From assembly GCA_964532205.1 (NCBI GenBank), contig CAZHGQ010000003.1, forward strand, positions 4,382 to 68,381: a stretch of 64,000 bases of DNA, written 5' to 3'. Under the pieces are notes generated by a model. That model worked only from the letters and a program-made list of their open reading frames with translations, was not told the DNA's origin and ran no database searches. The stretch is from an uncultured Candidatus Saccharibacteria bacterium (lineage in GTDB: Bacteria > Patescibacteriota > Minisyncoccia > Phycocordibacterales > JAKAEA01). The position numbers and the translations under genes are program-made. This document shows positions 5,877-52,780 of this stretch, piece by piece. Positions within the stretch are counted from its first letter, which is position 1; the number at the start of each line of letters is the position of its first letter.

Positions 5877-6647
5877 ATGACAGCAGTACAGGCACTCATA
5901 CTCGGTATTGTTGAAGGCTTAACTGAATTTTTACCCATTTCTTCAACAGCCCATCTTGAAATCGCGACACGTGTTTTAGGTATTGTTGATTCTGACTTTG
6001 TAAAAAGTTTCATTATTATTATTCAACTCGGCGCAATTTTAGCTGTTTTGGTTTTATTTGGTCGCCGTTTGTGGAGCCGAACTGAATTATGGAAAAGGGT
6101 AGTGGTGGCATTTATACCAACCGGCGTGATTGGTTTTGTGTTGTATAAAATTATTAAACATGTGTTGCTTGGTAATTTGTATATTGTTGTTTTGACTCTC
6201 GGTATCGGCGGCATCATTATTATTTTGTTTGAATACTCATTACGGAATAACGTTGGTACGGAGACTGAACTTGAACATATGCCGTACCTGACTGCGTTTT
6301 TGATCGGTATGGCCCAGTCCTTGGCGGTGGTGCCGGGCGTTTCGCGTTCAGCTGCGACGATTATCGCCGGCCGGGCCTTCGGCCTCGGCCGGCGAGCCAT
6401 TGTTGAGTTTTCATTCTTATTAGCCGTACCAACCATGCTGGCGGCCACCGGTTACGATTTGTTAAAAAATCAAACTTCATTCACGAGTGATCAAAACGCC
6501 GTGTTGGTAATTGGTTTTGTGGCGGCCTTTGTCAGTGCTTTGCTGGCTATTAAATATTTCTTGCGACTGGTTGAAAGATATTCGTTTACAGGATTCGGTG
6601 TTTATAGAATACTATTAGCAATCATTCTTATTATCTTTCTTCTATGA
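5877..6647 (+). CDS. uppP: Undecaprenyl-diphosphatase
   Basis: The N-terminus LILGIVEGLTEFLPISSTAHL is the UppP/BacA signature. Further matches are the SRSA motif region and 8 TM helices. Confidence 0.9.
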   Translation: MTAVQALILGIVEGLTEFLPISSTAHLEIATRVLGIVDSDFVKSFIIIIQLGAILAVLVLFGRRLWSRTELWKRVVVAFIPTGVIGFVLYKIIKHVLLGNLYIVVLTLGIGGIIIILFEYSLRNNVGTETELEHMPYLTAFLIGMAQSLAVVPGVSRSAATIIAGRAFGLGRRAIVEFSFLLAVPTMLAATGYDLLKNQTSFTSDQNAVLVIGFVAAFVSALLAIKYFLRLVERYSFTGFGVYRILLAIILIIFLL

Positions 6648-7087: not shown

Positions 7088-7090
7088 TAT

Positions 7091-7936: not shown

Positions 7937-7940
7937 TCAT

Positions 7941-8375: not shown

Positions 8376-8376
8376 C

Positions 8377-9225: not shown

Positions 9226-9245
9226 ATCCGGTAGAATACGATATT

Positions 9246-29200: not shown

Positions 29201-32200
29201 CCGGTGGTCTCTTCGACTCACTCTCATCAGCTGGTTCAAATGGTATGGTGCTCCAGTCGACAGGTTCAGCGACAAAGTGGGTAGCGACTTCAACGCTGGG
29301 TCTTGCTTCTACGCTTGTTGGTACAACTGGTCAAGTTGCATATTTTAACGGCACAAATTCAACAATCGGCACCTCATCAATCTCCATTGGTACTAATGGA
29401 TATGTTGGTGTCGGCACAAGCACGCCACTTTTCAAATTACATATTTCAGATGAAACATCTGCACCAATAGTTGCGATTCAGGGTGTATTCAATAGTGATG
29501 CAATTAGTCCAAAATTGTTTTTGGGTGAAAATTCGAATACAGGTTTCGGTATTCAATATCTCGGTTCAGCAAATCGATTCGACATCTTTAGTATGAATAA
29601 TGGCGCGTGGGCTGTGAACGAAACACCACGTCTATCTATTGCTCGAGATTCTGGCTATGTTGGTATTGGTACAACATCGCCGGGGTATATGCTCTCAGTT
29701 ACTGGCAGTATGTCAGCAGATAATGTTATTGCTTCATACTTCACCTCAACCTCAACAAATGCCACATCAACATTTAAAGGAAATATTATTGGCGGCTATA
29801 CAAATAACGTCTACGCAAGTAATTACTCTATCGCTGTCGGTGATGCCTCAACGGGCGCTGGTTACACATTAGCGGCATCAGGCAATGGTTCGGCCGCCTT
29901 CGGTCGTGTGGTGCCTGTTATTGGATCAGGTGGTGTAATTAGGGCTTCGGGTTCAGGTTCATTTGCAACAGGTGATATAGTTTCTATTACTGGTACTCCA
30001 ACAATCTTGGCTTCAGGTGGTGGTGCTGTTGCTCACGGTCACAACGAAGGTAGTGGTGCGATCACTGCCTCAGGTTCAGGTTCATTTGCAATTGGTTATT
30101 TAAATACTAATAGCATTACCGCTTCAAACACCGGCTCATTTGCCGGCGGTACTGGCGCAAGTGGTAATGTGGTATCGTCTGGCGCTGGCTCATTTGCTTG
30201 GGGTACAAATATTACCGCTTCAAATAGTTATAGTATTGCCTTTGGTTCAGGTTATACCAACGGTACTGCTAGTACGTTCCAGGTTGGCTTCTCATCAACA
30301 CCAACACTGACTGTTAATAGTACATCCGTTGGTATCGGTACTACCACACCATGGAAAAATCTTTCAGTTACAGGTGATATGGTTTTAACTGGTCGCTACT
30401 ATGACTCACTCTCATCAGCTGGTTCAAATGGCTATGTTCTTCAGTCAACGGGCTCAGCTACAAAATGGGTAGCAACATCGACGTTAGGTTTTCTATCATC
30501 GAGTGTGGTCTCAGGTCTTGGCACAAACTATATACCTAAGTGGAATGGTTCAGCATTTGCCGAAAGTCAGTTTTATGACAACGGTTCAAGTGTGGGTCTG
30601 CAAATGACTTCGCCACTACACACCCTAGATATCGGTTACTCTGGATCATATGGTGGATATATGCAGGGTGAAGCAGGTATCTTGGCTATGGGTGAGAGTC
30701 AGATGTCGCTCGGCGCATACGACCCCTTTTCTTCTCCAGTTAACCTGTTAACCCTCAACGGAACCGGCTTGGTCAGCGTAGTTAATGCTGATATGGAACT
30801 CGATGCTGGCCGACGAATGTATTACCGTGGTACCGATCATAATGGCTCTCTGTATTATGCTGGGGAAGGTCCATTTGCCGGCGCTCTTATTTTTGAATCA
30901 TATCCAAGTAATAACGATGGTTGGTTGTTCAAGAATCAAAATGGTGTAAGCATTTTGACACTTAGTGCCGGTGATACAGGTCAGACATTATACACTCCAG
31001 CAAATGTTGGTTTGGGTACCACAACTCCATGGAAAAAACTGTCTATAAGTGGCGACATGGTCCTTACTGGCGGTCTCTTCGATTCACTCTCATCAGCTGG
31101 TTCAAATGGCTATGTTCTTCAGTCAACGGGCTCAGCTACAAAATGGGTAGCAACATCAACGCTAGGTATTACCGCAAGTCTCACCGGTACAACAGGTCAG
31201 GTGGCCTACTTTAATGGTACCAACTCAGCTATTGGTACTTCATCTTTGTTCTTGGCAACGAGTGGTAACGTTGGGGTCGGCACAACATCACCATACGCCA
31301 CACTCTCAATAAACAAATCATCCGCCGCAAACTATGACCGTGTTATTAGTGCAAATATTGCTGGTAAAGAAGTCTTTGGTGTTGGACAGTATGATGCCTC
31401 GTCAAATTCTGCCTTTTACTTTGGTTCATCTGACGGTGTTTCAAATCCATATGTCCGTCTATTTGCTGGTCCAGCTGGCGGTGGAACACTAAGTTTCAAC
31501 GCGTATTTCACCTACTTTAACAGCTCGGCTGGCACGCAGTTTACTGGTGGCCCTGCACAATGGCAGGAAACGGGAACACCGACATCTGCTGCAACTCAGA
31601 AATCATCAAACATAATTGAGTTCAGGTCTGGTGTGTGGAATGGTTCAACAAATGGAAATCATATTCATCAAATTTACAACGCTGTTTCAACAACGGTGAA
31701 CTTACAGGACCGAATAGCGTTTAACTTAAACCGAGCAAATCAGATGGGCGGTACTTCATACGAGGCAATGTCTATCATGTATGACGGTGTAGCAAGTGGT
31801 CGAGTAGGAATTGGATCAACTACGCCATGGGCAAAGTTGTCGGTGAGCGCAATTGCTGCTGATGGTTCAGCGCCGTTGTTTGCGATTGGTTCTTCAACCG
31901 CAACGCAATTTATGATTGACAATACTGGCAAAGTTGGCATCGGTACAACATCGCCATACGCTACACTTTCACTCGGTGCGCCAGCAGGAAGTGAAATGTT
32001 TGCAATAGGTTCTTCAACAACGCCATTTAAGATAGATAAACAGGGAAAGGTAATTATTCGAGCATTGGCGGCGACGGACGGTGTTGGAACTAACGCTCCA
32101 TTCCAAGTACAAAACGAAGGTGGTACGGTCATTGCCTATATCCGTCAAGATGGCGGTATGTATAGTACCTTTATGTCTACAGCGGACAATGCTACGGCTG

Positions 32201-39464: not shown

Positions 39465-39886
39465 TGAAACTGCTCATTAAAAAAGTTCACGCTGACGCAA
39501 CGGTGCCGCACTATGCACACTCAGGTGATGCAGCGTTCGATCTCTTCACGCCGGAAAAAATCGAAATCAAACCCAGTGAGCGAGTCCAAGTGCCGACTGG
39601 TATTGCTATGGAAATACCATTTGGCTTTGCCGGACTCATTTGGGACAAAAGCGGCCTATCACACAAAAATGGCCTCAAGACACTTGGTGGTGTCATTGAC
39701 GCTGGCTATCGCGGCGAGGTAAAAGTTGGTATGATAAATCTCGCCACTGAAACCTATGTTTTTGAAAAAGGACATAAGGTTGCTCAAATGATCATTCAGA
39801 AAATTGAATCACCAGAAATCGAAGAGGTGACGGAATTATCTGATACATCACGCGGTGTCGGTGGTTTTGGTAGCACTGGCAAATAA
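39464..39886 (+). CDS. dut: dUTP diphosphatase
   Basis: The sequence SGDAAFDLF ... GLIWDKSGLS ... GVIDAGYRGEV matches dUTPase motifs I-V. Confidence 0.9.
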   Translation: MKLLIKKVHADATVPHYAHSGDAAFDLFTPEKIEIKPSERVQVPTGIAMEIPFGFAGLIWDKSGLSHKNGLKTLGGVIDAGYRGEVKVGMINLATETYVFEKGHKVAQMIIQKIESPEIEEVTELSDTSRGVGGFGSTGK

Positions 39887-39887
39887 T

Positions 39888-41636
39888 ATGAATATTCACG
39901 ACACAATTAAAGACTCAATCGACAAAGCGCTCAGTACACTGGGTGTGCCTAAAGATATGGTGGATATTGTGCTCGATCATCCAGCCGAAGAAAAGTTTGG
40001 TGATTATTCGACAAACGTGGCTTTGCTCATGTCACGCCAGCTTGGTGCTTCACATAAAAATCCAGTTGAATTGGCCAATAAAATCTCAGCCACAATCAAT
40101 GAGTCGGTAAAGACGGCTGAACATACATATATAGAGAAGACTGAGGTGGCCGGCCCGGGCTTCATCAATTTCTTTTTAAGTCAGGAATTTTTTACCGACG
40201 CCCTTTCAGAAATTTTGGAAAAAACAATTTGGTACGGTAAAACCACCAAGCTGTGGAATAAAAAAATCATTATTGAGCATACCAATATGAATCCGTTCAA
40301 GCCATTTCATATTGGTCACTTGGTTAACAATGCGATTGGCGAATCAATTACCCGTACGCTTGAATTTCAAGATGCCAAAGTCAGCCGCGCTACGTACGGT
40401 GGTGACGTCGGCTTGCATGTGGCCAAAACAGTCTGGGGTGTAATGCAGAAAAAAGCTGAATTGCCAGCTCAGGGCGACACTAAGCAAAAAATTGAATTCA
40501 TCGGCATGGCCTACGCCTTTGGTTCAAATGCTTATGATACTGACGAAACCGCTCAGCAGGAAATTCAGAATATCAATAAGAAAATTTTTGAACACTCTGA
40601 CGCGGAAATAAATGAAATATATGATTGGGGTCGCGATATTAGCCTCAAGTATTTCCAGTTGATTTATAAAAAACTCGATACCCGTTTTGATTATTCATTT
40701 TATGAAAGCGAAGTTTCTGAGGAGGGGGTAAATATTGTTACCGCCTTTCTGGAGCGTGGTATTTTTGAACAAAGTCAGGGTGCGATTATTTTCCCGGGTG
40801 AAAAATATGGTTTGCATAATCGTGTCTTTATCAATTCGCTTGGTTTGCCAACATATGAAGCTAAAGAACTTGGCCTGACCAAGAAAAAGTTTGAGTTGCA
40901 TGATTATAGTCACTCAATCGTTATTACCGCTAATGAGCAGAATGATTATTTCAAGGTTATCTTAAAAGTCCTGAGCCTCATCTATCCAGAAATTGCTGAT
41001 CGCACCAGACACATTGGTCACGGCATGATGCGCCTTTCAACGGGCAAGATGAGTTCACGAAAGGGTAATGTCGTTACCGGTGAGTCACTCATTGCTGAAA
41101 TGGAAGATATGGTGACAGAAAAAGTTAAAGACCGTGAATTGCCTGAATCACAGAAGAAAGAAATTATTGAAGCGGTAGCACTTGGAGCAATTAAATATTC
41201 AATTTTGAAACAATCACTTGGCAAAGACATTGTCTTTGATCCAGAAAAGTCTATTTCGTTTGAAGGTGATTCGGGTCCGTATTTGCAATACACGTTTGTC
41301 CGTACCCAATCTATTCTTCACAAAGCCGAAGAAGAGGGAATTAGGGGCAAGATTACCAAAACCGCTGCCAATAAACTTGGTGTAACGCCGCTGCATCGTT
41401 TGCTGTATAAATTCCCAGAAGTCGTGGAGCGTTCAGCGACAGAATTTGCGCCGCATCACATCACTACATATCTGACAATGTTGGCTTCTGAGTTTAATGC
41501 CTACTACGCTAATAATAAAATTGTTGATGCTAAAGACGAAACATCAGCGTATAAAATCGCTCTCACCGAAGCGGTGGGCTGGGTCTTGAAGGATGGTTTG
41601 CACCTACTTGGTATTCATGCGCCGGAGAGGATGTAA
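39888..41636 (+). CDS. argS: Arginine--tRNA ligase
   Basis: HTNMNPFKPFHIGHL is the HIGH motif. The N-terminal Arg_tRNA_synt_N-like domain and the C-terminal DALR region are present. The ATG lies 2 nt after the dut stop. Confidence 0.9.
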   Translation: MNIHDTIKDSIDKALSTLGVPKDMVDIVLDHPAEEKFGDYSTNVALLMSRQLGASHKNPVELANKISATINESVKTAEHTYIEKTEVAGPGFINFFLSQEFFTDALSEILEKTIWYGKTTKLWNKKIIIEHTNMNPFKPFHIGHLVNNAIGESITRTLEFQDAKVSRATYGGDVGLHVAKTVWGVMQKKAELPAQGDTKQKIEFIGMAYAFGSNAYDTDETAQQEIQNINKKIFEHSDAEINEIYDWGRDISLKYFQLIYKKLDTRFDYSFYESEVSEEGVNIVTAFLERGIFEQSQGAIIFPGEKYGLHNRVFINSLGLPTYEAKELGLTKKKFELHDYSHSIVITANEQNDYFKVILKVLSLIYPEIADRTRHIGHGMMRLSTGKMSSRKGNVVTGESLIAEMEDMVTEKVKDRELPESQKKEIIEAVALGAIKYSILKQSLGKDIVFDPEKSISFEGDSGPYLQYTFVRTQSILHKAEEEGIRGKITKTAANKLGVTPLHRLLYKFPEVVERSATEFAPHHITTYLTMLASEFNAYYANNKIVDAKDETSAYKIALTEAVGWVLKDGLHLLGIHAPERM

Positions 41637-41673
41637 AGTTTGGAAAACCCTAAAAAAATGCTAGTATTCGGGC

Positions 41674-44600
41674 ATGGCCGAGCACAAATCCGAACGAGCG
41701 TTGCGCGAAGAAGCTATCCAAGAATTCTGGCGCGAACACGATATTTTCAAAAAAACACTGCGGAAACCTTCACCGAAGGGTGAATTTGTCTTTTATGATG
41801 GTCCACCATTCGCTACCGGTCAGCCGCACTATGGTCATATTTTGGCTGGTACGATGAAGGACGCCATTCCGCGCTATAAAACCATGCAGGGCTACCATGT
41901 GCCGCGGGTGTGGGGCTGGGATTGCCACGGTTTACCGATCGAAAATCTGGTTGAAAAAGAATTGGGCTTGAAATCTAAAAAAGATATTGAGGATTTTGGT
42001 ATTCAAAAATTTAATGAAGCGGCCCGGGCGGCGGTGCTGCGTTATGACGCTGACTGGAAGAAAATCGTGCCGCGCACGGGCCGCTTCATCGACATGGATT
42101 TGGCATACCTCACGATGCAGCCCTCATATTCTGAATCAATTTGGTGGTCATTTAAAACACTGCATGACAAAGGTTTGATCTATCAGGGTTTTAAATCGAT
42201 GCATTTGTGTCCGCATTGTGGTACGACACTTTCAAACTTCGAAGTCGCTCAGGGCTACAAAGACATCACTGATATTTCAGTGTATGTAAAATTTGAACTG
42301 GTTGATGAACCAGGTATATTTGTGCTGGCATGGACAACAACGCCGTGGACATTGCCCGGTAATGTGGCGTTGGCTGTAAAATCTGACATTCAATATGTAC
42401 AGGTTGAAGTAAAAGGCGAACAGATAATTTTAGCTAAGGACAGACTGTCAGTAATTAAAGATGAATACACAGTTATTAAAGAATTTTCTGGCGCTGAACT
42501 TGTTGGCAAAACATATAAACCAGTGTTTCCATACTACAAAGACGCCGAACTCAAACACAAAGAAAATATCTGGAAGATCGTGGCGGCAGATTTTGTGACG
42601 ACACAGGATGGTGTGGGTGTGGTCCACATTGCTCCGGGCTACGGTGAAGATGACTACGTGTTGTCATTAAAAGAAAAATTACCATTCATTCAGCATGTTG
42701 GCACTGACGGTGCCTTCAAAAAAGAGGTCACGGACTTTGCCGGCGAACAGGTAAAACCAAAAGATGATCACCAAAAAGCTGACGTCGAAATCATTAAATA
42801 TTTGGCGCATCATAATTCACTATTTGCTAAAGAAAAATTAGTTCACTCATATCCGCATTGTTGGCGCTGTGATACACCGCTGCTTAACTACGCCACAAGC
42901 TCATGGTTTGTGGAGGTCACAAAACTTAAAGACCGCCTCGTAGCAGAAAACAAAAAAGTTCATTGGGTACCGGCAGAAATTGGCGAAGGTCGCTTCGGTA
43001 AATGGCTTGAAGGCGCTCGTGACTGGGCAATTTCACGTTCACGCTACTGGGGTGCGCCATTGCCTGTCTGGATCTGTGCCGATTGTAATCAAACTGAAGT
43101 TATTGGCACGGTGGCTGATTTGAAAAAGAAAACCAAGCGCAATAACTATTTCGTTATGCGTCACGGTGAAGCTGATCACAATGTAGCCAACATTTTAAGT
43201 TCCAAGGCGACAAATCCGCATCATTTGACTGAGCGAGGGCAGGAAACAGTGGCGACGATGGCCAAAGCGCTTGTCGATAAAAATATCGACATCATTATTG
43301 CTTCACCATTTGTGCGTACCAAAGAAACGGCAGATATCGTCGTTGAAGAAATTGCCTTCAAAGGCCAGGTGCAAACAGATGAACGTCTGGCTGAATATGA
43401 TTTCGGTGATTTGGATGGCCAGAGCATTGAAAAATATCACAGCTATTATTCATCGGTGACTGAACGTTTTGAAAAACGTTTACCAAACGGCGAAAATTTG
43501 CGTGATGTTAAACAGCGCATCGGCAATTTCTTGTATGACATTGATCAGAAATACGAAGGTAAAAATATTTTGTTCGTGACACATGATGGTCCAGCCAGCA
43601 TGATTTTTGCCGTGGCTGAAGGTGCTGATGATAAAGGTATGCTTGAACTCTGGGGCATGGATCGTGACTTTCTCTCGCCGGGACAAGAGGCGGTTTTGGA
43701 ATTTTCACAGTTGCCTCATAACGGTGATTACAGTCTCGATTTGCACCGACCGTATATAGATGAGGTGACATTTTCTTGTAGCTGCGGCGGCACAATGAAG
43801 CGCGTGCCGGAAGTCTTTGATACCTGGTATGAATCAGGTTCAATGCCGTACAGTCAGATTCATTATCCATTTGAAAATAAAGATAAGATCGACAATAAGC
43901 TGCAATTTCCAGCCAACTTTATTGCCGAAGGTCAGGATCAGACTCGTGGCTGGTTCTACTCATTACTTGTGCTCTCCGTCGGTCTCTTTGATCAAACTCC
44001 ATATCAGAATGTAATTGTTAACGGTATTGTTTTGGCTGAAGATGGTCAGAAAATGTCGAAGCGCTTAAAGAATTACCCTGATGTCTCGTATGTACTCGAC
44101 AAGTATGGCGCCGATGCTATGCGTTACTACATGCTTTCTTCACCGGTTGTGAAGGCTGAAGATTTGGCTTTTTCGGAGCGGGGATTGGATGAAGTTGTGA
44201 AAAAACTTTTGATGCGCTTGCAGAATGTCTACACATTCTACGAAACATACAAAGCTGAACAAAAGCCGCATCATGTTGATTCAAAAAATGTTTTGGATCG
44301 TTGGATTTTGGCGCGCTTAGCAGAACTTACAAAAACAGTGACGGAAAGTTTGGAAAACTATGAGCTCGACCGCGCCGCAAAACCGTTTATGCTTTTTGTC
44401 GACGATCTTTCAACCTGGTATTTGCGCCGCTCACGCGATCGTTTTAAGGGTGAAGATGAAAATGATAAGCAGTCAGCGTTAAAAACTATTGAGCATGTGT
44501 TACGTGAATTGGCAAAACTTATGGCGCCATTCATGCCATTTGTCGCTGAAGATTTGTACCAAAAATTGAAGACAGAGAAATCAGAATTGAGCGTACACCT

Positions 44601-45108
44601 CGAACAGTGGCCGACACATATGCAGTTTGATGAAAACATCCTGACAGATATGAATAACGTTCGGGCATTGGTCACCAAGGCTTTGGAATTACGGGCTTCA
44701 GCAGGCCTTAAAATCCGTCAGCCATTGGCCACATTAAAACTGAACCAAAATCTCGACACTGATTTACTCAATATTATTGCTGACGAATTGAATGTTAAAG
44801 AGGTTGTTTTTGATGTCAAAACGGAAGATGTCTGGCTTGATACGACAATTTCTGAAGAATTAAAGCGTGAGGGACAGGCACGAGAGCTCCAGCGCGCAAT
44901 TCAGGATATGCGTAAAGCTGAAAAACTCAATCCAAGTGATTCGATTGTATTGAATGTGCACAGTACTCAGGCGGGTTTGGATCTAGTACATACGTTTAAA
45001 GCAGATCTGATGAAAACCTGTCGCATTACTGAAATAAAAACTGGTGCTTCTGGTCAAAAGGTGGTGATCGATGATTTGGAATTTGATCTGAGCATAGAAC
45101 GTGCCTAA
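41674..45108 (+). CDS. ileS: Isoleucine--tRNA ligase (type 2, eukaryote-like) carrying an in-frame inserted histidine-phosphatase domain at about aa 488-686
   Basis: PPFATGQPHYGHIL is the HIGH motif and WAISRSRYWGAPLPVW and KMSKRLKNYPD (KMSKS) are present. The inserted segment has YFVMRHGE ... LTERGQE ... SPFVRTKETA ... FVTHDG, flanked by canonical IleS sequence (VIGTVADL | DLHRPYIDE..FDTWYESGSMPY). Confidence 0.9.
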   Translation: MAEHKSERALREEAIQEFWREHDIFKKTLRKPSPKGEFVFYDGPPFATGQPHYGHILAGTMKDAIPRYKTMQGYHVPRVWGWDCHGLPIENLVEKELGLKSKKDIEDFGIQKFNEAARAAVLRYDADWKKIVPRTGRFIDMDLAYLTMQPSYSESIWWSFKTLHDKGLIYQGFKSMHLCPHCGTTLSNFEVAQGYKDITDISVYVKFELVDEPGIFVLAWTTTPWTLPGNVALAVKSDIQYVQVEVKGEQIILAKDRLSVIKDEYTVIKEFSGAELVGKTYKPVFPYYKDAELKHKENIWKIVAADFVTTQDGVGVVHIAPGYGEDDYVLSLKEKLPFIQHVGTDGAFKKEVTDFAGEQVKPKDDHQKADVEIIKYLAHHNSLFAKEKLVHSYPHCWRCDTPLLNYATSSWFVEVTKLKDRLVAENKKVHWVPAEIGEGRFGKWLEGARDWAISRSRYWGAPLPVWICADCNQTEVIGTVADLKKKTKRNNYFVMRHGEADHNVANILSSKATNPHHLTERGQETVATMAKALVDKNIDIIIASPFVRTKETADIVVEEIAFKGQVQTDERLAEYDFGDLDGQSIEKYHSYYSSVTERFEKRLPNGENLRDVKQRIGNFLYDIDQKYEGKNILFVTHDGPASMIFAVAEGADDKGMLELWGMDRDFLSPGQEAVLEFSQLPHNGDYSLDLHRPYIDEVTFSCSCGGTMKRVPEVFDTWYESGSMPYSQIHYPFENKDKIDNKLQFPANFIAEGQDQTRGWFYSLLVLSVGLFDQTPYQNVIVNGIVLAEDGQKMSKRLKNYPDVSYVLDKYGADAMRYYMLSSPVVKAEDLAFSERGLDEVVKKLLMRLQNVYTFYETYKAEQKPHHVDSKNVLDRWILARLAELTKTVTESLENYELDRAAKPFMLFVDDLSTWYLRRSRDRFKGEDENDKQSALKTIEHVLRELAKLMAPFMPFVAEDLYQKLKTEKSELSVHLEQWPTHMQFDENILTDMNNVRALVTKALELRASAGLKIRQPLATLKLNQNLDTDLLNIIADELNVKEVVFDVKTEDVWLDTTISEELKREGQARELQRAIQDMRKAEKLNPSDSIVLNVHSTQAGLDLVHTFKADLMKTCRITEIKTGASGQKVVIDDLEFDLSIERA
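43135..43731 (+). other. Histidine-phosphatase (RHG/phosphoglycerate-mutase-fold) domain inserted inside ileS
   Basis: Motifs RHG, a second Arg, a Glu, and His in THDG are all present. There are no intein splice motifs. Confidence 0.7.
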
Positions 45109-45698
45109 TGGCTCATCATATCTACAACACCAAAGGTTTTGTCTTAGAAAGCAGTAATACCGGCGAGGCTAATAAAATGTACTCGCTGCTTACGGCTGAC
45201 GTGGGCTTAGTGCGAGCTATGGCTCAAGGGGTGCGTTTGCAAAAATCGAAACTGCGCTACAGCTTGCAAGACTTTTCGGCGGGCACAATTTCACTTGTCC
45301 GAGGCAAAGAAATTTGGCGCATTACTAGTGCTAAAATTGATCACAATCTCTACTACGATTTTAAATCACAGCCGGCCACGCGTTTGGTTGTAGCTAATAT
45401 TTTTAATTTGTTAAAGCGCCTGATTGTTGGTGAAGAAATAAATAAAAAATTATTCGAGCTTGTTTCAAATGCACTGGATTTTTTATACGCAGAAAAACTT
45501 TCAGCTGAGGAGGTCGGACTGTTTGAACGCATTGTGGTAGTACAGATTTTGCACAATCTTGGCTATATTGGCCATAAAACTGCCCTCGGTGACTTTTTAG
45601 AAGGGCAGTGGAGTCGGGAATTACTCGTCGCATTTGAGCCAAAAAAGAAGCTGGCACTGGAGGAAATTAATAACGCTCTAAGGGCTTCACAGCTATAG
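45108..45698 (+). CDS. recO: DNA repair protein RecO (short form)
   Basis: The N-terminal OB-fold reads TKGFVLESSNTGEANKMYSLLTADVGLVRAMAQGVRLQKSKLRYSLQDFS, typical of RecO. The gene is TAATG-coupled to ileS. Confidence 0.6.
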   Translation: MAHHIYNTKGFVLESSNTGEANKMYSLLTADVGLVRAMAQGVRLQKSKLRYSLQDFSAGTISLVRGKEIWRITSAKIDHNLYYDFKSQPATRLVVANIFNLLKRLIVGEEINKKLFELVSNALDFLYAEKLSAEEVGLFERIVVVQILHNLGYIGHKTALGDFLEGQWSRELLVAFEPKKKLALEEINNALRASQL

Positions 45699-45717
45699 CC
45701 TGTGTTATAATAATTGG

Positions 45718-47604
45718 GTGAATTTCAAGAATTCTCATAACATTGAGGATCTTCAGGATAAAATTAATGCCCGCTCTTTTGAAGCGCCAGATTTGCCACG
45801 TACCGAACTGCACAAGGATAAACAACACATTTTTAATGAGTGGCAGCATCCTGATTTGCAGGCTAAAATCAATCAGCAACAACAAAATCGCTCCAGTTCA
45901 GTTTTTAAGAAAATTTTTATTGGTTCGATTATCTTTTTCGTAGTCTGCTCGGCCCTGGCTCTGGTTATTATCTTCGGTGGCTTTAATATCATATCAACCA
46001 ATAAAGTTGATGTGGCTTTTCTGGGTCCTGTTACCATAGCAGCCGGTGAGCAGTTGTCTGTGGATGTGGATGTTAAAAACAATAACAGTACCGCTTTGGA
46101 AAATGTGGTGATGTATGTTGATTATCCTGATGGTACTAAGAACGATCAGAATAGCGCGCAGTTATCACATCAAAAAATCGAACTCGGTTCTTTGGCTGTT
46201 GGACAGAATTATCGACAAAATTTGAAAGCCATATTATTTGGTAATCAGAAAGATATTAAACAGATTAAGATTTCTGTTCAGTACAATATCAAGAATTCAA
46301 ACGACGAATTTAAAAAGGAAAAAACATACGAGGTTACACTGAGCTCGACACCACTTGTGATGACGGTTGCCCATGCCCCGCAGGTAACATCTGGTCAGGA
46401 AGTTACGTTTGATGTTGATATTGTCTCAAATGCGGCGATTGAACTGCACAATTTGCTGGTTCGAGCACAATTTCCATTCGGTTTTGAATTCAAGAGCTCT
46501 GACCCAAAGCCTTCTATTGGTCAGAATCCAATTTGGAGTATTGAGACCTTGCCGCCTGGCCAGAAAAAAACTATTCATATCACTGGTATTCTTAATGGCC
46601 AGGAAAACGATGAACGGATTTTTAGATTTGTTGTTGGGGAGCAGAGTCAAACCGATCCGACAGCCATTGCCACAACATATTTATCACAAGCTGAATCGGT
46701 AGCGGTAAAACGTCCAGCACTTCAAGCCGATGTTTTATTGAGTGATTCAGCAAGTTCAACAGTGGTTGTTGAAAAAAATAGACTGGTGAATGGTTCGTTG
46801 GCGATTACAAACAATTTAAATGTCAGCATCTCTAATGTTGAGGTTTCAGCCGTCTTTTCGGGCGCTGCTCTTGATCCAGCAAGTCCAAATCCAGCTGGTG
46901 GCGGTTACTATCAGTCACTCAATCGCACGGTAATTTGGAACAAGCAGGGTGATAAAAAATTGGCTTTGCTAGCTCCAGGAGATTCTGAGTATTTGTCATT
47001 CACGTTTAGTGCATTACCCACTGCGGCCGTTGGCAGCACGATGACTGTTAAGTTGAATGTTACCGGTACTGTGCCAAATTCTGATGGTTCATTGCAAAAA
47101 ATTACTAACACTCAGACTCGATTGGTGAAACTTCAGTCAAATGTTGGTTTGCAAGCTCGTACATTCTATTCTTCCGGTCCGTTTAAAAACACCGGCCCAA
47201 TTCCGCCTACTGTTGATAAAAAGACGACATACACCGTGACCTGGAATGTTCAGAATTCAAGTGCAATATACAATACAATTGTAAAAGGTAGATTGCCACA
47301 GGGTGTTGAGTGGGTAGGTGCGACATCGCCAGCCACAGAAAAGATTTCGTTTGATGCTGATACAAAACAGATTACCTGGAATGTGGGCGATGTTTCAACG
47401 GGCGCCCGACAGGCTTCGTTCCAAGTCAGTATCGTGCCAAGTATCAATCAGTTGGGTTTTGAACCAACCCTGGTTGAGGCCCAGACTATTACCGCTATCG
47501 ATGTCTTTACTGGTAGCAATCTTTCAACTACAATCGAAGATCTCGGCACAGATCTAAGCGCCGACTCGACAATTAAAGGTTCAGTTGGTAGTGTCATTAA
47601 ATAA
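45718..47604 (+). CDS. Large N-terminally membrane-anchored beta-sandwich repeat protein (DUF11/CARDB-like), hypothetical
   Basis: A TM helix IFIGSIIFFVVCSALALVIIFGG is followed by about 550 aa of beta-rich sequence with no catalytic motif. Confidence 0.4.
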   Translation: MNFKNSHNIEDLQDKINARSFEAPDLPRTELHKDKQHIFNEWQHPDLQAKINQQQQNRSSSVFKKIFIGSIIFFVVCSALALVIIFGGFNIISTNKVDVAFLGPVTIAAGEQLSVDVDVKNNNSTALENVVMYVDYPDGTKNDQNSAQLSHQKIELGSLAVGQNYRQNLKAILFGNQKDIKQIKISVQYNIKNSNDEFKKEKTYEVTLSSTPLVMTVAHAPQVTSGQEVTFDVDIVSNAAIELHNLLVRAQFPFGFEFKSSDPKPSIGQNPIWSIETLPPGQKKTIHITGILNGQENDERIFRFVVGEQSQTDPTAIATTYLSQAESVAVKRPALQADVLLSDSASSTVVVEKNRLVNGSLAITNNLNVSISNVEVSAVFSGAALDPASPNPAGGGYYQSLNRTVIWNKQGDKKLALLAPGDSEYLSFTFSALPTAAVGSTMTVKLNVTGTVPNSDGSLQKITNTQTRLVKLQSNVGLQARTFYSSGPFKNTGPIPPTVDKKTTYTVTWNVQNSSAIYNTIVKGRLPQGVEWVGATSPATEKISFDADTKQITWNVGDVSTGARQASFQVSIVPSINQLGFEPTLVEAQTITAIDVFTGSNLSTTIEDLGTDLSADSTIKGSVGSVIK

Positions 47605-47605
47605 T

Positions 47606-48961
47606 ATGAAAGAACAGACAACAATGGAAAAGATCATTTCGCTGGCAAAGCGACGTGGTTTTATATATCAGGGTTCGGAAGTGTATGGTGGTTTGGCCGG
47701 TACCTGGGATTATGGCCCACTTGGTGTGGCTTTAAAAAATCGAATTAAACAGCTCTGGTGGCAGCGTTTTGTGGAAGATCGCGATGATATTTTTGGCGTT
47801 GATGCGGCAATTTTAATGAATCAAAATGTCTGGAAGGCTTCCGGGCATGTGGCTGGTTTTGCTGATCCGTTGGTGGAGGATGTAAAGACAAAAAAGCGCT
47901 ATCGGGCCGATCATTTACTCGAAGAAGCTGGTGTTGATGTTCATGGTTTGAGTTTGGCGCAGATGGACAGTCTTATTAAAGAGAAGGGAATTAAAAGTCC
48001 TGATGGCAACGCTTTGGGTGATGTGCGTCAATTTAATATGATGTTCAAGACAAATGTCGGCGCTATGGAAGATGAGGGTTCGGTTTCATATTTGCGACCC
48101 GAAACCGCGCAGGGTATGTTTGTAAACTTCAAGAATGTTGTCGACTCTTTTCATCCAAAGTTACCATTTGGTCTTGGTCAAATTGGTAAAGCATTCCGTA
48201 ATGAAATTGCACCGCGTGATTTCATTTTCCGCACGCGTGAATTTGAACAAATGGAAATTGAATACTTTGTACATCCTGACAATTGGGAACAATCTTTTGA
48301 AGCCTTTCGTAAAGAGATGATCGCTTGGACACGCGATATTGGTTTGAATGCCGCTCATGTGCATGAGTTGGAAGTTGAAACAGCTGATCGAGCCCATTAT
48401 TCAAAACGTACAATTGATTTTGAATTTGACTATCCATTTGGTCGCAAAGAGTTGTACGGTTTGGCGTATCGAACCGACTATGATTTGAAAGCCCATGCGG
48501 CTGCTAGTGGCGCTAATCTGGCCTACTTTGATGAAGAAACAAAACAGGAATTTGTGCCACATGTGATTGAACCGTCATTTGGTGTTGATCGCACAGTGCT
48601 CGCGATTCTCGCCGACGCCTATACCGAAGACCAGCTCGGTGGCGAGAATCGCGCCTTCCTGCGTCTCGAAAAAACAGTTGCTCCCGTTCGCGCGGCAGTC
48701 TTTCCATTGCTTAAAAACAAACCTGCGCTCGTTGAAAAAGCGCGTGAGGTGCATGCAATGCTTAAGAAACAATTTTCAAATATTGCTTTCGATGACAATG
48801 GCAATATCGGTAAGCGTTATCGCCGTCAGGATGAAATTGGTACACCGTCATGTATTACCATCGACTTTGATACATTAGAAAATGACACTGTGACTGTGCG
48901 TAACCGTGATACGGGCGAACAGGAGCGCGTCGCTATCAGCGAGCTTGCGTCAAAAATCTAG
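47606..48961 (+). CDS. glyQS: Glycine--tRNA ligase (dimeric class II GlyRS)
   Basis: MEKIISLAKRRGFIYQGSEVYGGLAGTWDYGPLG is the canonical N-terminus. Class II motifs FRNEIAPRDFIFRTREFEQME are present. Confidence 0.9.
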   Translation: MKEQTTMEKIISLAKRRGFIYQGSEVYGGLAGTWDYGPLGVALKNRIKQLWWQRFVEDRDDIFGVDAAILMNQNVWKASGHVAGFADPLVEDVKTKKRYRADHLLEEAGVDVHGLSLAQMDSLIKEKGIKSPDGNALGDVRQFNMMFKTNVGAMEDEGSVSYLRPETAQGMFVNFKNVVDSFHPKLPFGLGQIGKAFRNEIAPRDFIFRTREFEQMEIEYFVHPDNWEQSFEAFRKEMIAWTRDIGLNAAHVHELEVETADRAHYSKRTIDFEFDYPFGRKELYGLAYRTDYDLKAHAAASGANLAYFDEETKQEFVPHVIEPSFGVDRTVLAILADAYTEDQLGGENRAFLRLEKTVAPVRAAVFPLLKNKPALVEKAREVHAMLKKQFSNIAFDDNGNIGKRYRRQDEIGTPSCITIDFDTLENDTVTVRNRDTGEQERVAISELASKI

Positions 48962-48978
48962 TCCTGTATATTCATAGG

Positions 48979-50247
48979 ATGAAATACAAGCGAAAAATCC
49001 TCAAAAACGGCCTGCGATTGATTACCGTTCACATGGAAGATAGCCCGACTGTTACCGTCCTGGTCATGGTAGAAGCTGGCTCAAAATACGAAACAAAGCG
49101 CATAAACGGCATCTCACACTTTTTGGAGCACATGTGCTTTAAGGGTACTAAAGAGCGCCCAACAGCTCTCGATATTTCCAAAGAGCTTGATGCTATCGGT
49201 TCACAGTACAATGCCTTCACCTCTGAAGAGTTTACAGGTTACTACGCTAAAGCGGCGCCAAAACACGTGTCAAAAATTCTGGACGTGGTGGCTGATCTCT
49301 ACTTAAATCCGACCTTTGATACTAAAGAAATGGAAAAAGAAAAAGGTGTCATCATTGAAGAAATAAATATGTACCGTGATTTGCCGCATCGTCACGTGCA
49401 AGAATTATTTACTGAATTATTGTATGGTGATCAGCCGGCTGGATGGAGTATTGCTGGCACTAAAGAAACTGTGCAATTGCTCAATCGTAATGATATGGTT
49501 CAGTACCGCGATCAGCACTATGTTGGTGCGGCAACTACAGTAATTGTGGCTGGTAATTTTAATGAACAAAAAATTCAAAAAGAAATTGAACAGAAATTTG
49601 GTGTTCTGCCAAAGGGTCCAAAGACAGGGAAGGTGAAGGTTGTAGAGATTCAGGAAAAATCTCAACTCTATGTTGAGTCGCGAACTACTGATCAGTCGCA
49701 TATTGTGATTGGTGTACGCGGCTATCCGTTGGCTCACAAGAGTACACCAGCCTTGAAAGTTTTGAATGCAGTGCTCGGTGGCGGCATGAGCTCGCGCTTG
49801 TTTCAAAAACTCCGCGAAGAAATGGGGGTGGGGTATTATGTGCGATCGTCATATGATGTCTTGAGCGATCACGGTATTTTGTCTGTGGCGGTGGGCGTCG
49901 ACGTGAAGCGCGTTGAAGAAGTTACTAAAGCTGTTCTCGCCGAATTCAAACGCTTAACCAAAGAATTGGTTTCCGAAGATGAATTGCAAAAAACCAAAGA
50001 ATATTTAATCGGTAACATGGCTTTGAGTCTTGAATCATCAGATGAAATTGCCGAATTTTATGCCTTTCAGGAAATTATGAATCGCCCAATCCGAATGCCG
50101 CAAACTCTGGCTCAAGAAATTAAAGCTGTTACTGCCACTGAAATTCGGGCTGTTGCTAAAAAGATTTTTACCGATAAACGGCTTAATATGGCCGTAATTG
50201 GGCCAATTTCGGACCGTAAATCTCTCGAATCAATCCTGACAATTTAA
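48979..50247 (+). CDS. M16-family zinc peptidase (pitrilysin/insulinase-like)
   Basis: The inverted zinc motif HFLEHMCFKGT (HxxEH) is present, and the size and layout match M16B. Confidence 0.8.
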   Translation: MKYKRKILKNGLRLITVHMEDSPTVTVLVMVEAGSKYETKRINGISHFLEHMCFKGTKERPTALDISKELDAIGSQYNAFTSEEFTGYYAKAAPKHVSKILDVVADLYLNPTFDTKEMEKEKGVIIEEINMYRDLPHRHVQELFTELLYGDQPAGWSIAGTKETVQLLNRNDMVQYRDQHYVGAATTVIVAGNFNEQKIQKEIEQKFGVLPKGPKTGKVKVVEIQEKSQLYVESRTTDQSHIVIGVRGYPLAHKSTPALKVLNAVLGGGMSSRLFQKLREEMGVGYYVRSSYDVLSDHGILSVAVGVDVKRVEEVTKAVLAEFKRLTKELVSEDELQKTKEYLIGNMALSLESSDEIAEFYAFQEIMNRPIRMPQTLAQEIKAVTATEIRAVAKKIFTDKRLNMAVIGPISDRKSLESILTI

Positions 50248-50277
50248 TTTACTGCTCTCGAGTGTTATTATAGGATC

Positions 50278-51357
50278 ATGACCGAACACAAGCATGTGAC
50301 TGTTTCAATCAGTGTAATGTCTATCATCCGGATCTTATTGCTCGGCTTGTTAGCACTATTTCTCTATTATATTCGTGATATTATTTTGGTCGTGTTGGTT
50401 GCGGTTGTTATAGCTTCGGCCATTGAACCAGGCACTAAACTCCTCGTTAAACGCAAATTTCCTCGAGTTTTGGCAGTAATTACGATATATTCCATCATTA
50501 TTATTCTCGTTGTGGCTTTATCGTACCTCGTCTTACCAACGTTGATCAAAGATGTTGCAAACTTTGCCAACATGCTGCCGCAATATATTACGACACTAAA
50601 TGTGAACGACAGTTCAAGTACTTTGGGTTTGCAGACAATGAAGGGTTTATCAAATGGTGAATCGTTGGGTCAGGCTGTGCAGAACATTACTACAACATTG
50701 GCCACCAACTCAGCTAGTACATTAACATTGCTAACCACGGTCTTCGGTGGCGCTTTGAGTTTATTTGCAGTGATTATTTTGTCATTCTATTTAGCCGTTA
50801 AAGAAAATGGTGTGGAAGAATTTTTGCGACTTGTCATTCCGCTTCATCGTGAAGAGTATATTATTAATTTATGGCATCGCACCCAGCACAAAATTGGTCG
50901 CTGGATGCAAGGTCAAATGATTTTGGCCGCCATTGTCGGTGTTTTGGTTTTTGTAACTCTGACTCTGCTCGGTGTACCAAACGCCTTCTTCTTGGCTATT
51001 ATTTCGACAGTCTTTGAAATTATTCCGGTCTTTGGACCGTTTATTGGTTCGGTGCCAGGCGTACTGATAGGATTTATCGATGGTGGAATTACGTTTGCCT
51101 TGTTGTTGGCTTTGGTGTATCTCATCATTCAGCAAATTGAAAGTAATGTGATTTATCCACTGGTGATGCGCAAGGTTCTTGATATTCAGCCAATACTCGT
51201 TATCATTGCACTTATTGTTGGTGCCAAGCTTGGCGGTCTGCTCGGTATCTTAGTTTCGGTGCCAATGGCCGTCGCTTTAACAGAGTTCATGAATGATATG
51301 GGTAAAAATCGCTCAGCCGCTCGTGAACGTTTTTCAAATCGTCATGCCGAATCATAA
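50278..51357 (+). CDS. AI-2E family transporter (PerM/UPF0118)
   Basis: 8 TM helices. The conserved C-terminal region reads FIGSVPGVLIGFIDGG ... YPLVMRKVLDIQPI. Confidence 0.75.
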   Translation: MTEHKHVTVSISVMSIIRILLLGLLALFLYYIRDIILVVLVAVVIASAIEPGTKLLVKRKFPRVLAVITIYSIIIILVVALSYLVLPTLIKDVANFANMLPQYITTLNVNDSSSTLGLQTMKGLSNGESLGQAVQNITTTLATNSASTLTLLTTVFGGALSLFAVIILSFYLAVKENGVEEFLRLVIPLHREEYIINLWHRTQHKIGRWMQGQMILAAIVGVLVFVTLTLLGVPNAFFLAIISTVFEIIPVFGPFIGSVPGVLIGFIDGGITFALLLALVYLIIQQIESNVIYPLVMRKVLDIQPILVIIALIVGAKLGGLLGILVSVPMAVALTEFMNDMGKNRSAARERFSNRHAES

Positions 51358-52780
51358 ATTTTACATTACCAGTCCAATTTTTTACCCAAATGCCAAATTA
51401 CATTTGGGTCATGCCTACACCATGACGGTTTGTGATATTTTAGCGCGCTATCATCGGCTGGTGGGCGACGCAACATATTTTTTGACAGGCACAGATGAAA
51501 ACACTGGTAAGGTTATTAAGGTTGCCGCTGAACAGAATGTGAGTACGCATGAATATCTCGAGGGTATCAGCGCCAATTTTCAAAAATTATATTCAGACTT
51601 GGACATCCAGTACGATCAATTCATCCGTACCACAGATCAGGGTGTGCATTGGCCGGGCGCAGTGAAAATGTGGCAGAAACTGGTTGAAGCCGGTGATATT
51701 TACAAAGGAACATATACGGGCTTGTATTGTTTGAGTTGCGAAACATTCTATACCGAAAAAGATTTGGTTGATGGTAAATGTCCGGTTCATGGCACAGAAC
51801 CAGAACGTATTACGGAGGATAATTATTTTTTCAAACTTTCCAAATACACCAAGACGATTAAAGAAAAAATTGAAAGTGGGGAAATGAATATTTTGCCTGA
51901 GACGCGCAAGAATGAAATTGTGGCGTTGCTTGATCGTGGCTTGGAAGATATTAGTTTTTCACGACCAATTAAAAATGTGCCGCACGGAATTCCGGTGCCC
52001 GGTGATGAGGCTCAGGTGATCTATGTCTGGTGCGATGCTTTGGTGAATTATATTTCGGCTTTAGGCTATGGCACTGATGAGAAAAAGTTGACTGAGTTTT
52101 GGCCGGCCGAGGTGCATGTCATTGGCAAGGACATTTTGCGCTTTCATGCCGCAATTTGGCCAGCTATGTTACTGTCGGCCGGCCTACCATTACCCAAGAA
52201 TCTCTTTGTCCACGGCCTGATTATGTCTGGTGGTCGTAAGATGTCCAAATCACTCGGTAATGTCATTGACCCCGAAGAATTGATAGCTGAATATGGTAAA
52301 GATGCGGTGCGTTACTATTTGGCTAAAGAAATTAGCCCATTTGAAGATGGTGATTTAACGCGTGAAAGTTTTAAGGCAGTTTATAATGCTCAATTGGCCA
52401 ATGGTCTTGGTAATCTAGTCTCCCGAGTGATGAGAATGGCTACAAGCTACGATGTGACTAAACCAACATTGCTGTCAGAACAAGAAATAGTTAAAACATC
52501 TGAAGCCTATATTAAGCATTTCAAGGCCTTCGAATTTCATAAGGCCGCAGAATTCGTAGCCCAAGAGGTAACCCGACTCGATCAACACATTCAAAAAACA
52601 GAACCATTTAAATTGGTTAAAACTGATCCAGAGCAAGCCAAAAACATTGTTACTGAACTTGTTGAGGGTGTGTGGCGTATTGCTACACTCCTCACACCGT
52701 TTATTCCTGATACGGCGGGTAAAATTAAAGAATCAATTAAACATTGGCAAATGCCACAAGCTTTATTCTTGAGAAAATAA
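51344..52780 (+). CDS. metG: Methionine--tRNA ligase
   Basis: FYITSPIFYPNAKLHLGHAYT is the HIGH region and KMSKSLGN is present. There are no zinc-knuckle Cys. The ATG at 51344 overlaps the upstream gene end. Confidence 0.9.
   Translation: MPNHKFYITSPIFYPNAKLHLGHAYTMTVCDILARYHRLVGDATYFLTGTDENTGKVIKVAAEQNVSTHEYLEGISANFQKLYSDLDIQYDQFIRTTDQGVHWPGAVKMWQKLVEAGDIYKGTYTGLYCLSCETFYTEKDLVDGKCPVHGTEPERITEDNYFFKLSKYTKTIKEKIESGEMNILPETRKNEIVALLDRGLEDISFSRPIKNVPHGIPVPGDEAQVIYVWCDALVNYISALGYGTDEKKLTEFWPAEVHVIGKDILRFHAAIWPAMLLSAGLPLPKNLFVHGLIMSGGRKMSKSLGNVIDPEELIAEYGKDAVRYYLAKEISPFEDGDLTRESFKAVYNAQLANGLGNLVSRVMRMATSYDVTKPTLLSEQEIVKTSEAYIKHFKAFEFHKAAEFVAQEVTRLDQHIQKTEPFKLVKTDPEQAKNIVTELVEGVWRIATLLTPFIPDTAGKIKESIKHWQMPQALFLRK

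Follow-up and report, generated by a model that had tools for sequence, protein, structure and literature searches.

A histidine phosphatase domain nested in the isoleucyl-tRNA synthetase of Patescibacteria, with free-standing counterparts encoded beside ileS

The stretch of DNA analyzed here (the window) comprises 64,000 nucleotides from an uncultured Candidatus Saccharibacteria bacterium (assembly GCA_964532205.1, contig CAZHGQ010000003.1, positions 4,382 to 68,381) and carries an isoleucyl-tRNA synthetase (IleRS) gene, ileS, into which a histidine phosphatase has been inserted in frame. A first-pass annotation made from the sequence alone had read the open reading frame (ORF) at 41674..45108 as a type-2, eukaryote-like IleRS of 1144 aa, quoting the motifs PFATGQPHYGHIL, WAISRSRYWGAPLPVW, and KMSKRLKNYPD, and had placed the phosphatase at 43135-43731. 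All three motifs are present, and the ORF, its match to TIGR00392, and its DUF5915 domain confirmed the assignment. The parts of the gene are listed below; CP stands for connective peptide, and domain names follow the ScIleRS boundaries of PMC7955072.

41674..45108, + strand: ileS, type-2 (eukaryote-like) IleRS with a nested histidine phosphatase, 1144 aa (ORF, TIGR00392, structural model, synteny)
41674..43137, + strand: N-terminal part of IleRS, with Rossmann half 1 including HYGH, the CP core, the CP1 editing domain (WTTTPWTLPGN; GVVHIAPGYGEDD), CP2, the CP2-3 linker (WAISRSRYWG), and CP3 up to the insert (counterpart of human IleRS 15-490 and yeast IleRS 13-493)
43075..43086, + strand: first half of the CP3 zinc knuckle, C468-x-x-C471 (CADC), the Cys being kept in 81/88 sequences
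43138..43710, + strand: nested histidine phosphatase (His_Phos_1, branch 1), aa ~489-679, ~190 aa (PF00300; junctions against insert-less relatives)
43159-43167, 43315-43317, 43393-43395, and 43582-43584, + strand: predicted catalytic residues R496-H497-G498, R548, E574, and H637, respectively, to which N503 is added
43711..45108, + strand: C-terminal part of IleRS, with the rest of CP3 (LPHN..LDLHRPYID), Rossmann half 2 (DTWYESG), the anticodon-binding domain, and DUF5915 (counterpart of human IleRS from residue 497 on and of yeast IleRS from residue 498 on; Pfam)
43777-43785, + strand: second half of the CP3 zinc knuckle, C702-x-C704
44050-44064, + strand: KMSKR, aa 793-797

The host synthetase appears intact. 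The protein scored 905.6 bits against the TIGR00392 ileS equivalog (cutoff 621.4) despite the 190-aa interruption, and a Pfam search of the whole protein returned tRNA-synt_1 split over two stretches (E=1.3e-134), Anticodon_1, His_Phos_1, and DUF5915, the type-2 C-terminal domain, at aa 1053-1143. Both class I motifs are in place, HYGH (HIGH) at aa 52-55 and KMSKR at aa 793-797; across 120 homologues H52, G54, K793, and K796 were invariant, and H55, M794, and S795 nearly so. The CP1 editing motifs WTTTPWTLPGN (aa 220-230) and GVGVVHIAPGYGEDD (GxGxVHxAP) likewise fall in invariant or nearly invariant columns of our alignment A1. C468 and C471 presumably correspond to C461 and C464 of the T. thermophilus enzyme (1ILE). 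An AlphaFold2 model of the whole protein, built from a 120-sequence alignment, reached a mean predicted local distance difference test score (pLDDT) of 92.8 and a predicted template modelling score of 0.85. Foldseek matched it best to P. megaterium IleRS2 (8c8v, TM 0.84) and also to 1ile (0.92) and the yeast IleRS-tRNA structure 8wnd, the TM scores being normalised to the target. Because the order argS-ileS-recO-CLIPPER-glyS-M16-AI2E-metG-tatD-S6-SSB is common to the window and two relatives without the insert, this ileS was taken to be the orthologous housekeeping gene. The ORF is thus the housekeeping type-2 IleRS of a Paceibacteria-type bacterium (Patescibacteria, also called the Candidate Phyla Radiation or CPR), and orthology and synteny with insert-less ileS indicate that the protein probably charges tRNA-Ile with isoleucine.

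The insertion site was located by alignment to reference enzymes. In phmmer comparisons with the PDB, residues 11-485 of the query aligned to 15-490 of human IleRS and the alignment resumed at query 688 with human residue 497; for yeast IleRS, query 11-488 aligned to 13-493 and query 688 to 498. Since the alignment breaks there with both references, about 200 residues stand in for about 5-6 of a reference IleRS. Two close relatives without the insert sharpened the limits: across the insertion site P0037 reads ...ELVEKSGKEPKNRKGERDVHRP (also shown as ...ELVEKSGKEPKNRKGERDVHRPYID) and P0085 reads ...ELKQKTGGIIPKNKKGELDLHRP (also shown as ...ELKQKTGGIIPKNKKGELDLHRPYID), while the window protein reads ...DLKKKTK[RNNYFVMRHG...LEFSQ]LPHNGDYSLDLHRPYID, with the insert in brackets. 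The motif P(H/K)N....LDLHRP occurs in both relatives and therefore belongs to a native IleRS loop. An in-frame insertion of about 200 residues had been described correctly in the first-pass annotation, and its limits are refined here from 43135-43731 to 43138..43710. CP3 of ScIleRS spans residues 459-526 (PMC7955072). The insertion maps to about residues 493-498 of the yeast enzyme, in a surface loop inside CP3 and between the knuckle halves C468xxC471 and C702xC704.

The inserted segment is a histidine phosphatase. PF00300 was found at aa 493-656 when the whole protein was searched (E=9.8e-32), and the segment 43135..43731 alone matched profile positions 2-166 of 194 with 115.3 bits (gathering threshold 21.7; E=3.7e-33), in line with what had been proposed for it. 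Modelled alone, the insert gave a pLDDT of 95.1 and an alpha/beta/alpha fold with a cap. Structure comparison matched it to small-molecule enzymes, with protein phosphatases scoring lower (SixA 15.9, PGAM5 14.9, Sts-2 14.8), and sequence searches agreed with this placement. The insert is complete as a histidine phosphatase of branch 1 and falls into the capped type that acts on small molecules, alongside PspA, GpgP, PhoE, and CobC. R496, H497, G498, R548, E574, and H637 align with the motifs of CobC and PspA and were invariant in 118/118 insert-bearing sequences, as were E607 and R615, which brings the invariant pocket residues to eight. The RHG, the second Arg, and the His of THDG had been named as catalytic beforehand and stood; the Glu of ERGxE did not, as alignment places the acid at E574, within RLAEYDFG, where CobC and PspA have their LxE...G motif, and not at the Glu of LTERGQE. 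Pairwise identity averaged 46% in the phosphatase domain vs. 66-71% in the synthetase core, and invariance of eight pocket residues in so divergent a domain shows strict purifying selection on the pocket and supports the earlier expectation that the domain is probably active.

None of the substrate-defined relatives could be equated with the insert. Cofactor-dependent phosphoglycerate mutase (dPGM) was rejected on score (best model NF038349, 84.8 bits vs. 225, other dPGM models lower) and because the dPGM hallmark H-G-N after the second His is absent, the sequence there being T-H-D-G-P. Alpha-ribazole phosphatase CobC (TIGR03162, 83.4 bits vs. a cutoff of 162.9), phosphoserine phosphatase PspA (NF045917, 66.1 vs. 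350), and phosphohistidine phosphatase SixA (TIGR00249, 37.8 vs. 74.5) were rejected in the same way.

The 120 best homologues came from NCBI, JGI, ENA, and Logan (identity 56-77%), and all but two of them, 118, have PF00300 at the same place. In a GTDB scan with one genome per species, 341 loci encoded a relative, and in the best 80 of these it was in every case embedded in ileS at the same site, with both IleRS flanks visible in 78 and partial flanks in 2. The titles of these 80 include Campbellbacteria (complete genome CP011215.1), Nomurabacteria, Vogelbacteria, Yonathbacteria, Taylorbacteria, Zambryskibacteria, Lloydbacteria, and Paceibacterota, and some of the genomes have been public since 2015-2016. 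In public annotation the protein has no label more specific than 'class I tRNA ligase family protein'. This survey of Patescibacteria IleRS, which extends over hundreds of species, bears out the view that the phosphatase is a permanent domain of the synthetase; the nested architecture is abundant in public Patescibacteria genomes and not rare. The two exceptions among the 120 homologues are P0037 and P0085. In a neighbour-joining tree of the synthetase core only (no support values) they fell separately among insert-bearing sequences, which suggests clean losses of the module.

Free-standing forms of the same phosphatase were found next to ileS in other Patescibacteria. When 1.84 billion representatives were searched exhaustively with the insert by phmmer, 1168 matches reached E<=1e-10, and the top matches were mostly IleRS, joined by complete proteins of 188-195 aa that were 35-43% identical to the insert; the insert itself, at about 190 residues, has the size of a free-standing enzyme of the family. 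The genomic contexts of five such proteins from three clusters were resolved by tblastn and Pfam, and each gene lies beside an insert-less ileS, in the order argS, phosphatase, ileS, with ileS either on the same strand or convergent. In locus L005 the phosphatase gene spans 6001-6570 and ileS 6572-9367. A metagenome scan seeded with seven free-standing proteins returned 80 loci, of which 72 were informative, and ileS was present in all 72. The phosphatase gene was immediately upstream of ileS on the same strand in 46 of them, convergent with ileS in 3, and 0.4-2.4 kb away in 4; in the remaining 19 the phosphatase was embedded, exactly at the CP3 site, in IleRSs 41-49% identical to that of the window. 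No locus in the scan with at least 1.5 kb on both sides was without ileS. In all 46 upstream cases the two ORFs are separate and the phosphatase stop codon overlaps or abuts the predicted ileS start (mostly -19 to +15 nt), with argS usually directly upstream of the phosphatase; we propose that the free-standing gene is translationally coupled to ileS.

Embedded and adjacent forms were never found together in one locus, either in the best 80 GTDB loci or in the metagenome loci. The stand-alone relatives are 33-41% identical to the window insert and up to 66% identical to other embedded copies. Distances between phosphatases co-vary with distances between the accompanying IleRSs (r=0.36; Mantel, 0 of 999), and the closest mixed pair, the embedded L120 and the adjacent L126, shows 66% identity between the phosphatases and 62% between the IleRSs. 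On a neighbour-joining tree of the IleRS N-terminal half (no support values) the two states are interleaved, so the arrangement was switched several times, by insertion of the neighbouring gene or by fission of a nested domain, or alleles were exchanged. In our reading, the nested domain is an internalised version of what exists in other Patescibacteria as a separate gene between argS and ileS.

One rival explanation takes the insert to be an artefact of assembly (a chimera), an intein, or a different mobile insertion that does nothing for the host. Unusual insertions are frequent in CPR genes, a related IleRS (P0171) even contains an IS200-like transposase domain, and embedded and adjacent states are interleaved on a quick neighbour-joining tree. 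However, the same in-frame junctions recur in hundreds of independent assemblies, GC content is continuous over both junctions, and the catalytic residues are under purifying selection. An assembly chimera was ruled out by the uniform composition together with the identical junctions. An intein, which the first-pass annotation had also argued against, was ruled out because a Pfam search of the whole protein found no Hint or homing-endonuclease domain, because neither junction has a Cys, Ser, or Thr (the insert begins R-N-N-Y), and because the 'HN' belongs to the native IleRS loop, where the next residue varies (G, R, A, or E) and insert-less relatives have 'KN'. The sequence around the junctions was also searched for repeats flanking the insert and contained none, which, with the lack of Hint or endonuclease domains and junction nucleophiles, ruled out a mobile element. 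We regard the chance of an artefact or selfish element as negligible.

Nesting of the phosphatase is not restricted to the CP3 loop or to IleRS. Pfam searches and inspection revealed three more sites in IleRS: after the WFESG strand, in the variable loop at the start of the anticodon domain after KMSKS, and inside the second knuckle half. Over all sites IleRS proteins carry 1-3 copies, including combinations of 2-3, and copies at the second and third sites group by site. The valyl-tRNA synthetase (ValRS) P0122 has four phosphatase copies in tandem, and 70 of its 119 relatives carry 1-3 copies; where named, these are from Gracilibacteria or Peregrinibacteria. In ValRS, 72/82 domains lie between WCISRQ and DTWFSS, which is the equivalent of the CP3 position.

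Up to four copies in tandem resemble avidity more than catalysis, and a non-catalytic module, that is, a structural, phosphate-binding, or tRNA-binding pseudo-enzyme comparable to the tRNA-binding appendages of eukaryotic synthetases, would also fit a domain that some lineages dispense with. Some histidine-phosphatase folds are weak or inactive, and the pseudoenzyme 8gdl was among our structure matches. Yet the nucleophilic His, both Arg, the second His, and the acidic Glu are invariant in 118/118 sequences, RH is kept in 81/82 ValRS domains, and RH and the second His are kept in every copy of the multi-copy proteins. A purely non-catalytic role is therefore very improbable.

Other domains are nested in related synthetases. 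P0171 (1066 aa), a related IleRS, has its IS200-like Y1 transposase domain at aa 340-461 in the CP1 region, a His_Phos domain at 680-854 at the CP3 site, and a GNAT domain at 935-1063 after WFESG. P0089 (1325 aa), an IleRS from Patescibacteria, combines a GNAT domain nested in the CP1 region with the CP3 phosphatase. The Patescibacteria ValRSs P0300, P0335, and P0309 list PF04480 (DUF559, endonuclease-like) and PF00216 (HU-type DNA-binding), and judging from these extra Pfam domains class Ia synthetases of CPR seem generally permissive to nested domains.

The neighbours of ileS in the window, and a second phosphatase gene at some distance from it, are as follows.

39855..41636, + strand: argS (ArgRS), 37 nt upstream of ileS (ORF)
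45108..45698, + strand: recO, downstream neighbour of ileS (RecO_N Pfam match on orthologues in L001, L002, and L005; tblastn)
5187..5858, + strand: stand-alone His_Phos_1 paralog, 223 aa, directly upstream of bacA/uppP (PF00300 E=1.6e-30)
5877..6647, + strand: bacA/uppP, neighbour of the stand-alone phosphatase

In the window, the interval separating argS from ileS contains no phosphatase gene. The gene at 5187..5858 had been pointed out as a paralog of the insert, and it does belong to the same superfamily, but it is not a close paralog: its product is about 32% identical to the IleRS inserts, all its NCBIfam matches are below cutoff, and the true counterparts adjoin ileS elsewhere. By these sequence comparisons it is a distant subfamily and not a partner of ileS, and as the source of the insert it was rejected on the same identity and its other subfamily.

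Four synthetase genes, argS, ileS, glyS, and metG, lie within 13 kb (39855..52780), interleaved with recO and genes for a CLIPPER-domain protein, an M16 peptidase, and an AI-2E transporter, and this gene order is kept in the relatives L001, L002, and L005. A 272-aa ORF without a Pfam match is wedged between ileS and recO beside P0085 (L002:13031-13849, + strand) and has no counterpart in the window or in L001. In L004 (4300-4420, - strand) ileS is called as two ORFs as a result of an in-frame TGA at the invariant Trp of HSYPHC-W-RC, the sole in-frame stop in 976 codons; it is either a sequencing error, a nonsense mutation, or a UGA read as Trp. The largest gene of the window is an ORF of 4746 aa (14.2 kb) at 20242..34482 (+ strand). 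Giant surface proteins are frequent in CPR genomes.

From the conserved pocket and the linkage to two synthetases we infer catalytic activity and a functional coupling to the host enzyme. Our preferred reading, to which we assign a probability of roughly 55%, is that the domain is an active phosphomonoesterase of the small-molecule type that is coupled, as a partner, to IleRS and ValRS, both of them editing synthetases. By analogy with its family, His497 would attack the phosphate to form a phospho-histidine, with the phosphate held by Arg496, Arg548, His637, and Asn503, and the leaving group would be protonated by Glu574. In yeast IleRS the CP2-3 linker (ARDW..SR.RYWG) lines the pocket for the tRNA CCA end (A76) beside HIGH and KMSKS, and CP3 comes directly after this linker (PMC7955072). 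From this adjacency to the tRNA-A76/ATP pocket the phosphatase is predicted to sit beside the mouth of the synthetic site, where it may hydrolyse a small phosphomonoester tied to the aminoacylation or editing cycle. A small-molecule substrate is favoured over protein or RNA because of the capped structural class and because the closest relatives are all small-molecule enzymes. The choice among small molecules is speculative. The leading candidate is 5'-AMP, since it is the only phosphomonoester that the synthetase reaction makes and since IleRS and ValRS, the two enzymes in which the module was found, make it in excess; even so, it is an unlikely choice if taken singly, and pyrophosphate (PPi) or a phosphorylated inhibitor or metabolite are alternatives.

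Several points weigh against a coupled phosphomonoesterase. Nesting at several sites and in up to four copies implies that exact geometry relative to the active site is not critical. The absence of the module from P0037 and P0085, with no replacement gene in the sequence available around the insert-less ileS (10 kb to either side in L002, but upstream of ileS just about 330 nt in L001), indicates that some lineages can do without it. Evolution has been faster in the insert than in the core of the synthetase (46% vs. 66-71% identity), and because every substrate-defined NCBIfam equivalog stayed below its cutoff, no substrate can be assigned from sequence. Hydrolysis of AMP in particular would waste energy in energy-poor cells.

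Part of this pattern would also be expected if an ordinary metabolic phosphatase or mutase (PGM-like, phosphoserine-phosphatase-like, or of nucleotide salvage) happened to be encoded with ileS and became fused to it, gaining constitutive expression but having no mechanistic link to aminoacylation. The best NCBIfam similarities are to archaeal dPGM, CobC, and PspA, the structure matches small-molecule enzymes, Patescibacteria genomes are densely packed with housekeeping genes, and both the indifference to geometry and the loss in some close relatives suit mere co-expression. Such an arrangement would not, however, be expected to keep its linkage to ileS in 72/72 loci over IleRS lineages only 40-55% identical, nor to recur by nesting at four IleRS sites and, in a different class, at the CP3 site of ValRS that is homologous; chance operon neighbours should not behave in this manner. 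The missing dPGM H-G-N (THDGP in the insert) and the uniformly sub-cutoff equivalog scores also speak against the known metabolic activities. We consider co-expression alone unlikely, though it is the most probable of the rival explanations.

A macromolecular substrate was considered as well. In this explanation the domain is a built-in repair or antidote activity that removes a 3'-phosphate or 2',3'-cyclic phosphate from the acceptor end of a damaged tRNA or dephosphorylates a serine of the KMSKS loop. Toxin kinases of the HipA and HipT types phosphorylate the KMSKS-loop serine of GltX and TrpS and thereby inactivate these synthetases; our literature search found no HipA-KMSKS link. The position of CP3 after the linker that lines the A76 pocket, beside the KMSKS loop, would be suitable, NCBIfam also matched the bifunctional RNase H/acid phosphatase, and GNAT domains are nested in the same synthetases. 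But none of the gene neighbourhoods inspected showed a partner kinase or nuclease, and PADLOC gave no match for the window insert or the 5187..5858 paralog and a marginal one for the free-standing P0176 (E=4.6e-4, Cas4-like nuclease model). A preprint on the CCA enzyme contained no link to an HD-domain or a phosphatase. Repair or antidote action on tRNA or protein is accordingly doubtful, more so than co-expression alone. A separate, further-reaching reading would make the domain a dedicated catalytic partner of IleRS and ValRS across Patescibacteria that acts on the synthetase's own cycle, the partnership having been fixed repeatedly by operon coupling or nesting; options are the removal of AMP or PPi, the clearing of a phosphorylated inhibitor, the healing of a phosphorylated tRNA end, or the reversal of KMSKS-loop phosphorylation. 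We offer this reading only tentatively, with the odds against it.

The architecture was compared with known systems. The type-2 IleRSs, the eukaryote-like and mupirocin-resistant kind, of P. megaterium (IleRS2, 8C8V), T. thermophilus (1ILE), and yeast cytosol (7D5C, 8WND) have the fold, HIGH, KMSKS, the CP1 motifs, the CP3 knuckle, and the C-terminal domain in common with the window protein, but hold about 6-15 residues in the CP3 loop where the latter has a 190-aa enzyme domain. Acquired mupirocin resistance is not claimed, because the MupA and MupB models score 737 and 734 bits vs. a cutoff of 1900. Editing-like hydrolysis, antibiotic protection, and regulation, as put forward in the first-pass annotation, are candidate roles. 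PspA (4IJ5), GpgP (6S2Q), PhoE/YhfR (1H2E), CobC (6E4B, 6NRU), and the riboflavin-pathway HFP (9MMH) are only 20-25% identical to the insert, and such small branch-1 enzymes are all free-standing, whereas phosphatases of the window type are nested in, or operon-coupled to, a tRNA synthetase. A curator-recognised precedent for an IleRS that hosts a foreign enzyme domain is NF040702 'ileS_w_GNAT', of which we found no functional description in the literature; the window protein scores 352.6 bits against this model (cutoff 1999) and has no acetyltransferase Pfam match, and the GNAT domain sits in the CP1 region (P0089) or after WFESG (P0171), not in the CP3 loop. The RNase H/acid phosphatase (NF005567, Rv2228c type) and the histidine phosphatase of TFIIIC tau55 (2YN0) are terminal fusions with other partners in unrelated lineages, in contrast to the nested domain described here. 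The physiological substrates of the Rv2228c-type and tau55 phosphatase domains are unclear, and these enzymes are therefore an analogy and not an explanation. Closest in mode are the class Ia CP1 editing domain, the leucine-specific domain of LeuRS, and the GST, WHEP, and EMAPII appendages of eukaryotes, in that a module occupies a connective-peptide loop of the Rossmann fold and leaves catalysis undisturbed; they serve hydrolytic editing, tRNA binding, or protein interaction, and there is no phosphatase among them. Neither a phosphatase nor a GNAT domain is mentioned in the 2024 AARS Online paper. The earlier statement that no such architecture had been described held in our search, which found no paper on an aminoacyl-tRNA synthetase with a histidine phosphatase domain, but covered open-access text only, so that an earlier mention is possible. 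The pairing is new, while both component families, and nesting in connective-peptide loops, were already known.

A phosphatase family without a known link to translation is thus tied to IleRS and ValRS by operon, by nesting in CP3, and by further sites and tandem copies, in hundreds of species that belong to a major bacterial radiation; recurrent fixation of this kind is a classic sign of functional partnership. The finding also concerns annotation, as the proteins are labelled merely 'class I tRNA ligase family protein'. Aminoacyl-tRNA synthetases rank with the most thoroughly studied enzymes, and their accessory domains have repeatedly revealed new biology in editing, signalling, and complex assembly. 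The dedicated partnership, if true, would extend aminoacylation, or the control of its quality, by a step not known before. Should the phosphatase act on the aminoacylation cycle, class Ia synthetases would gain a new kind of accessory activity, one that may inform how ultra-small, energy-limited symbionts manage translation; otherwise, the phosphatase would mark CP3 as a permissive insertion site, of use in protein engineering, and would be a clean natural case of a domain that shuttles repeatedly between a neighbouring gene and a nested position.

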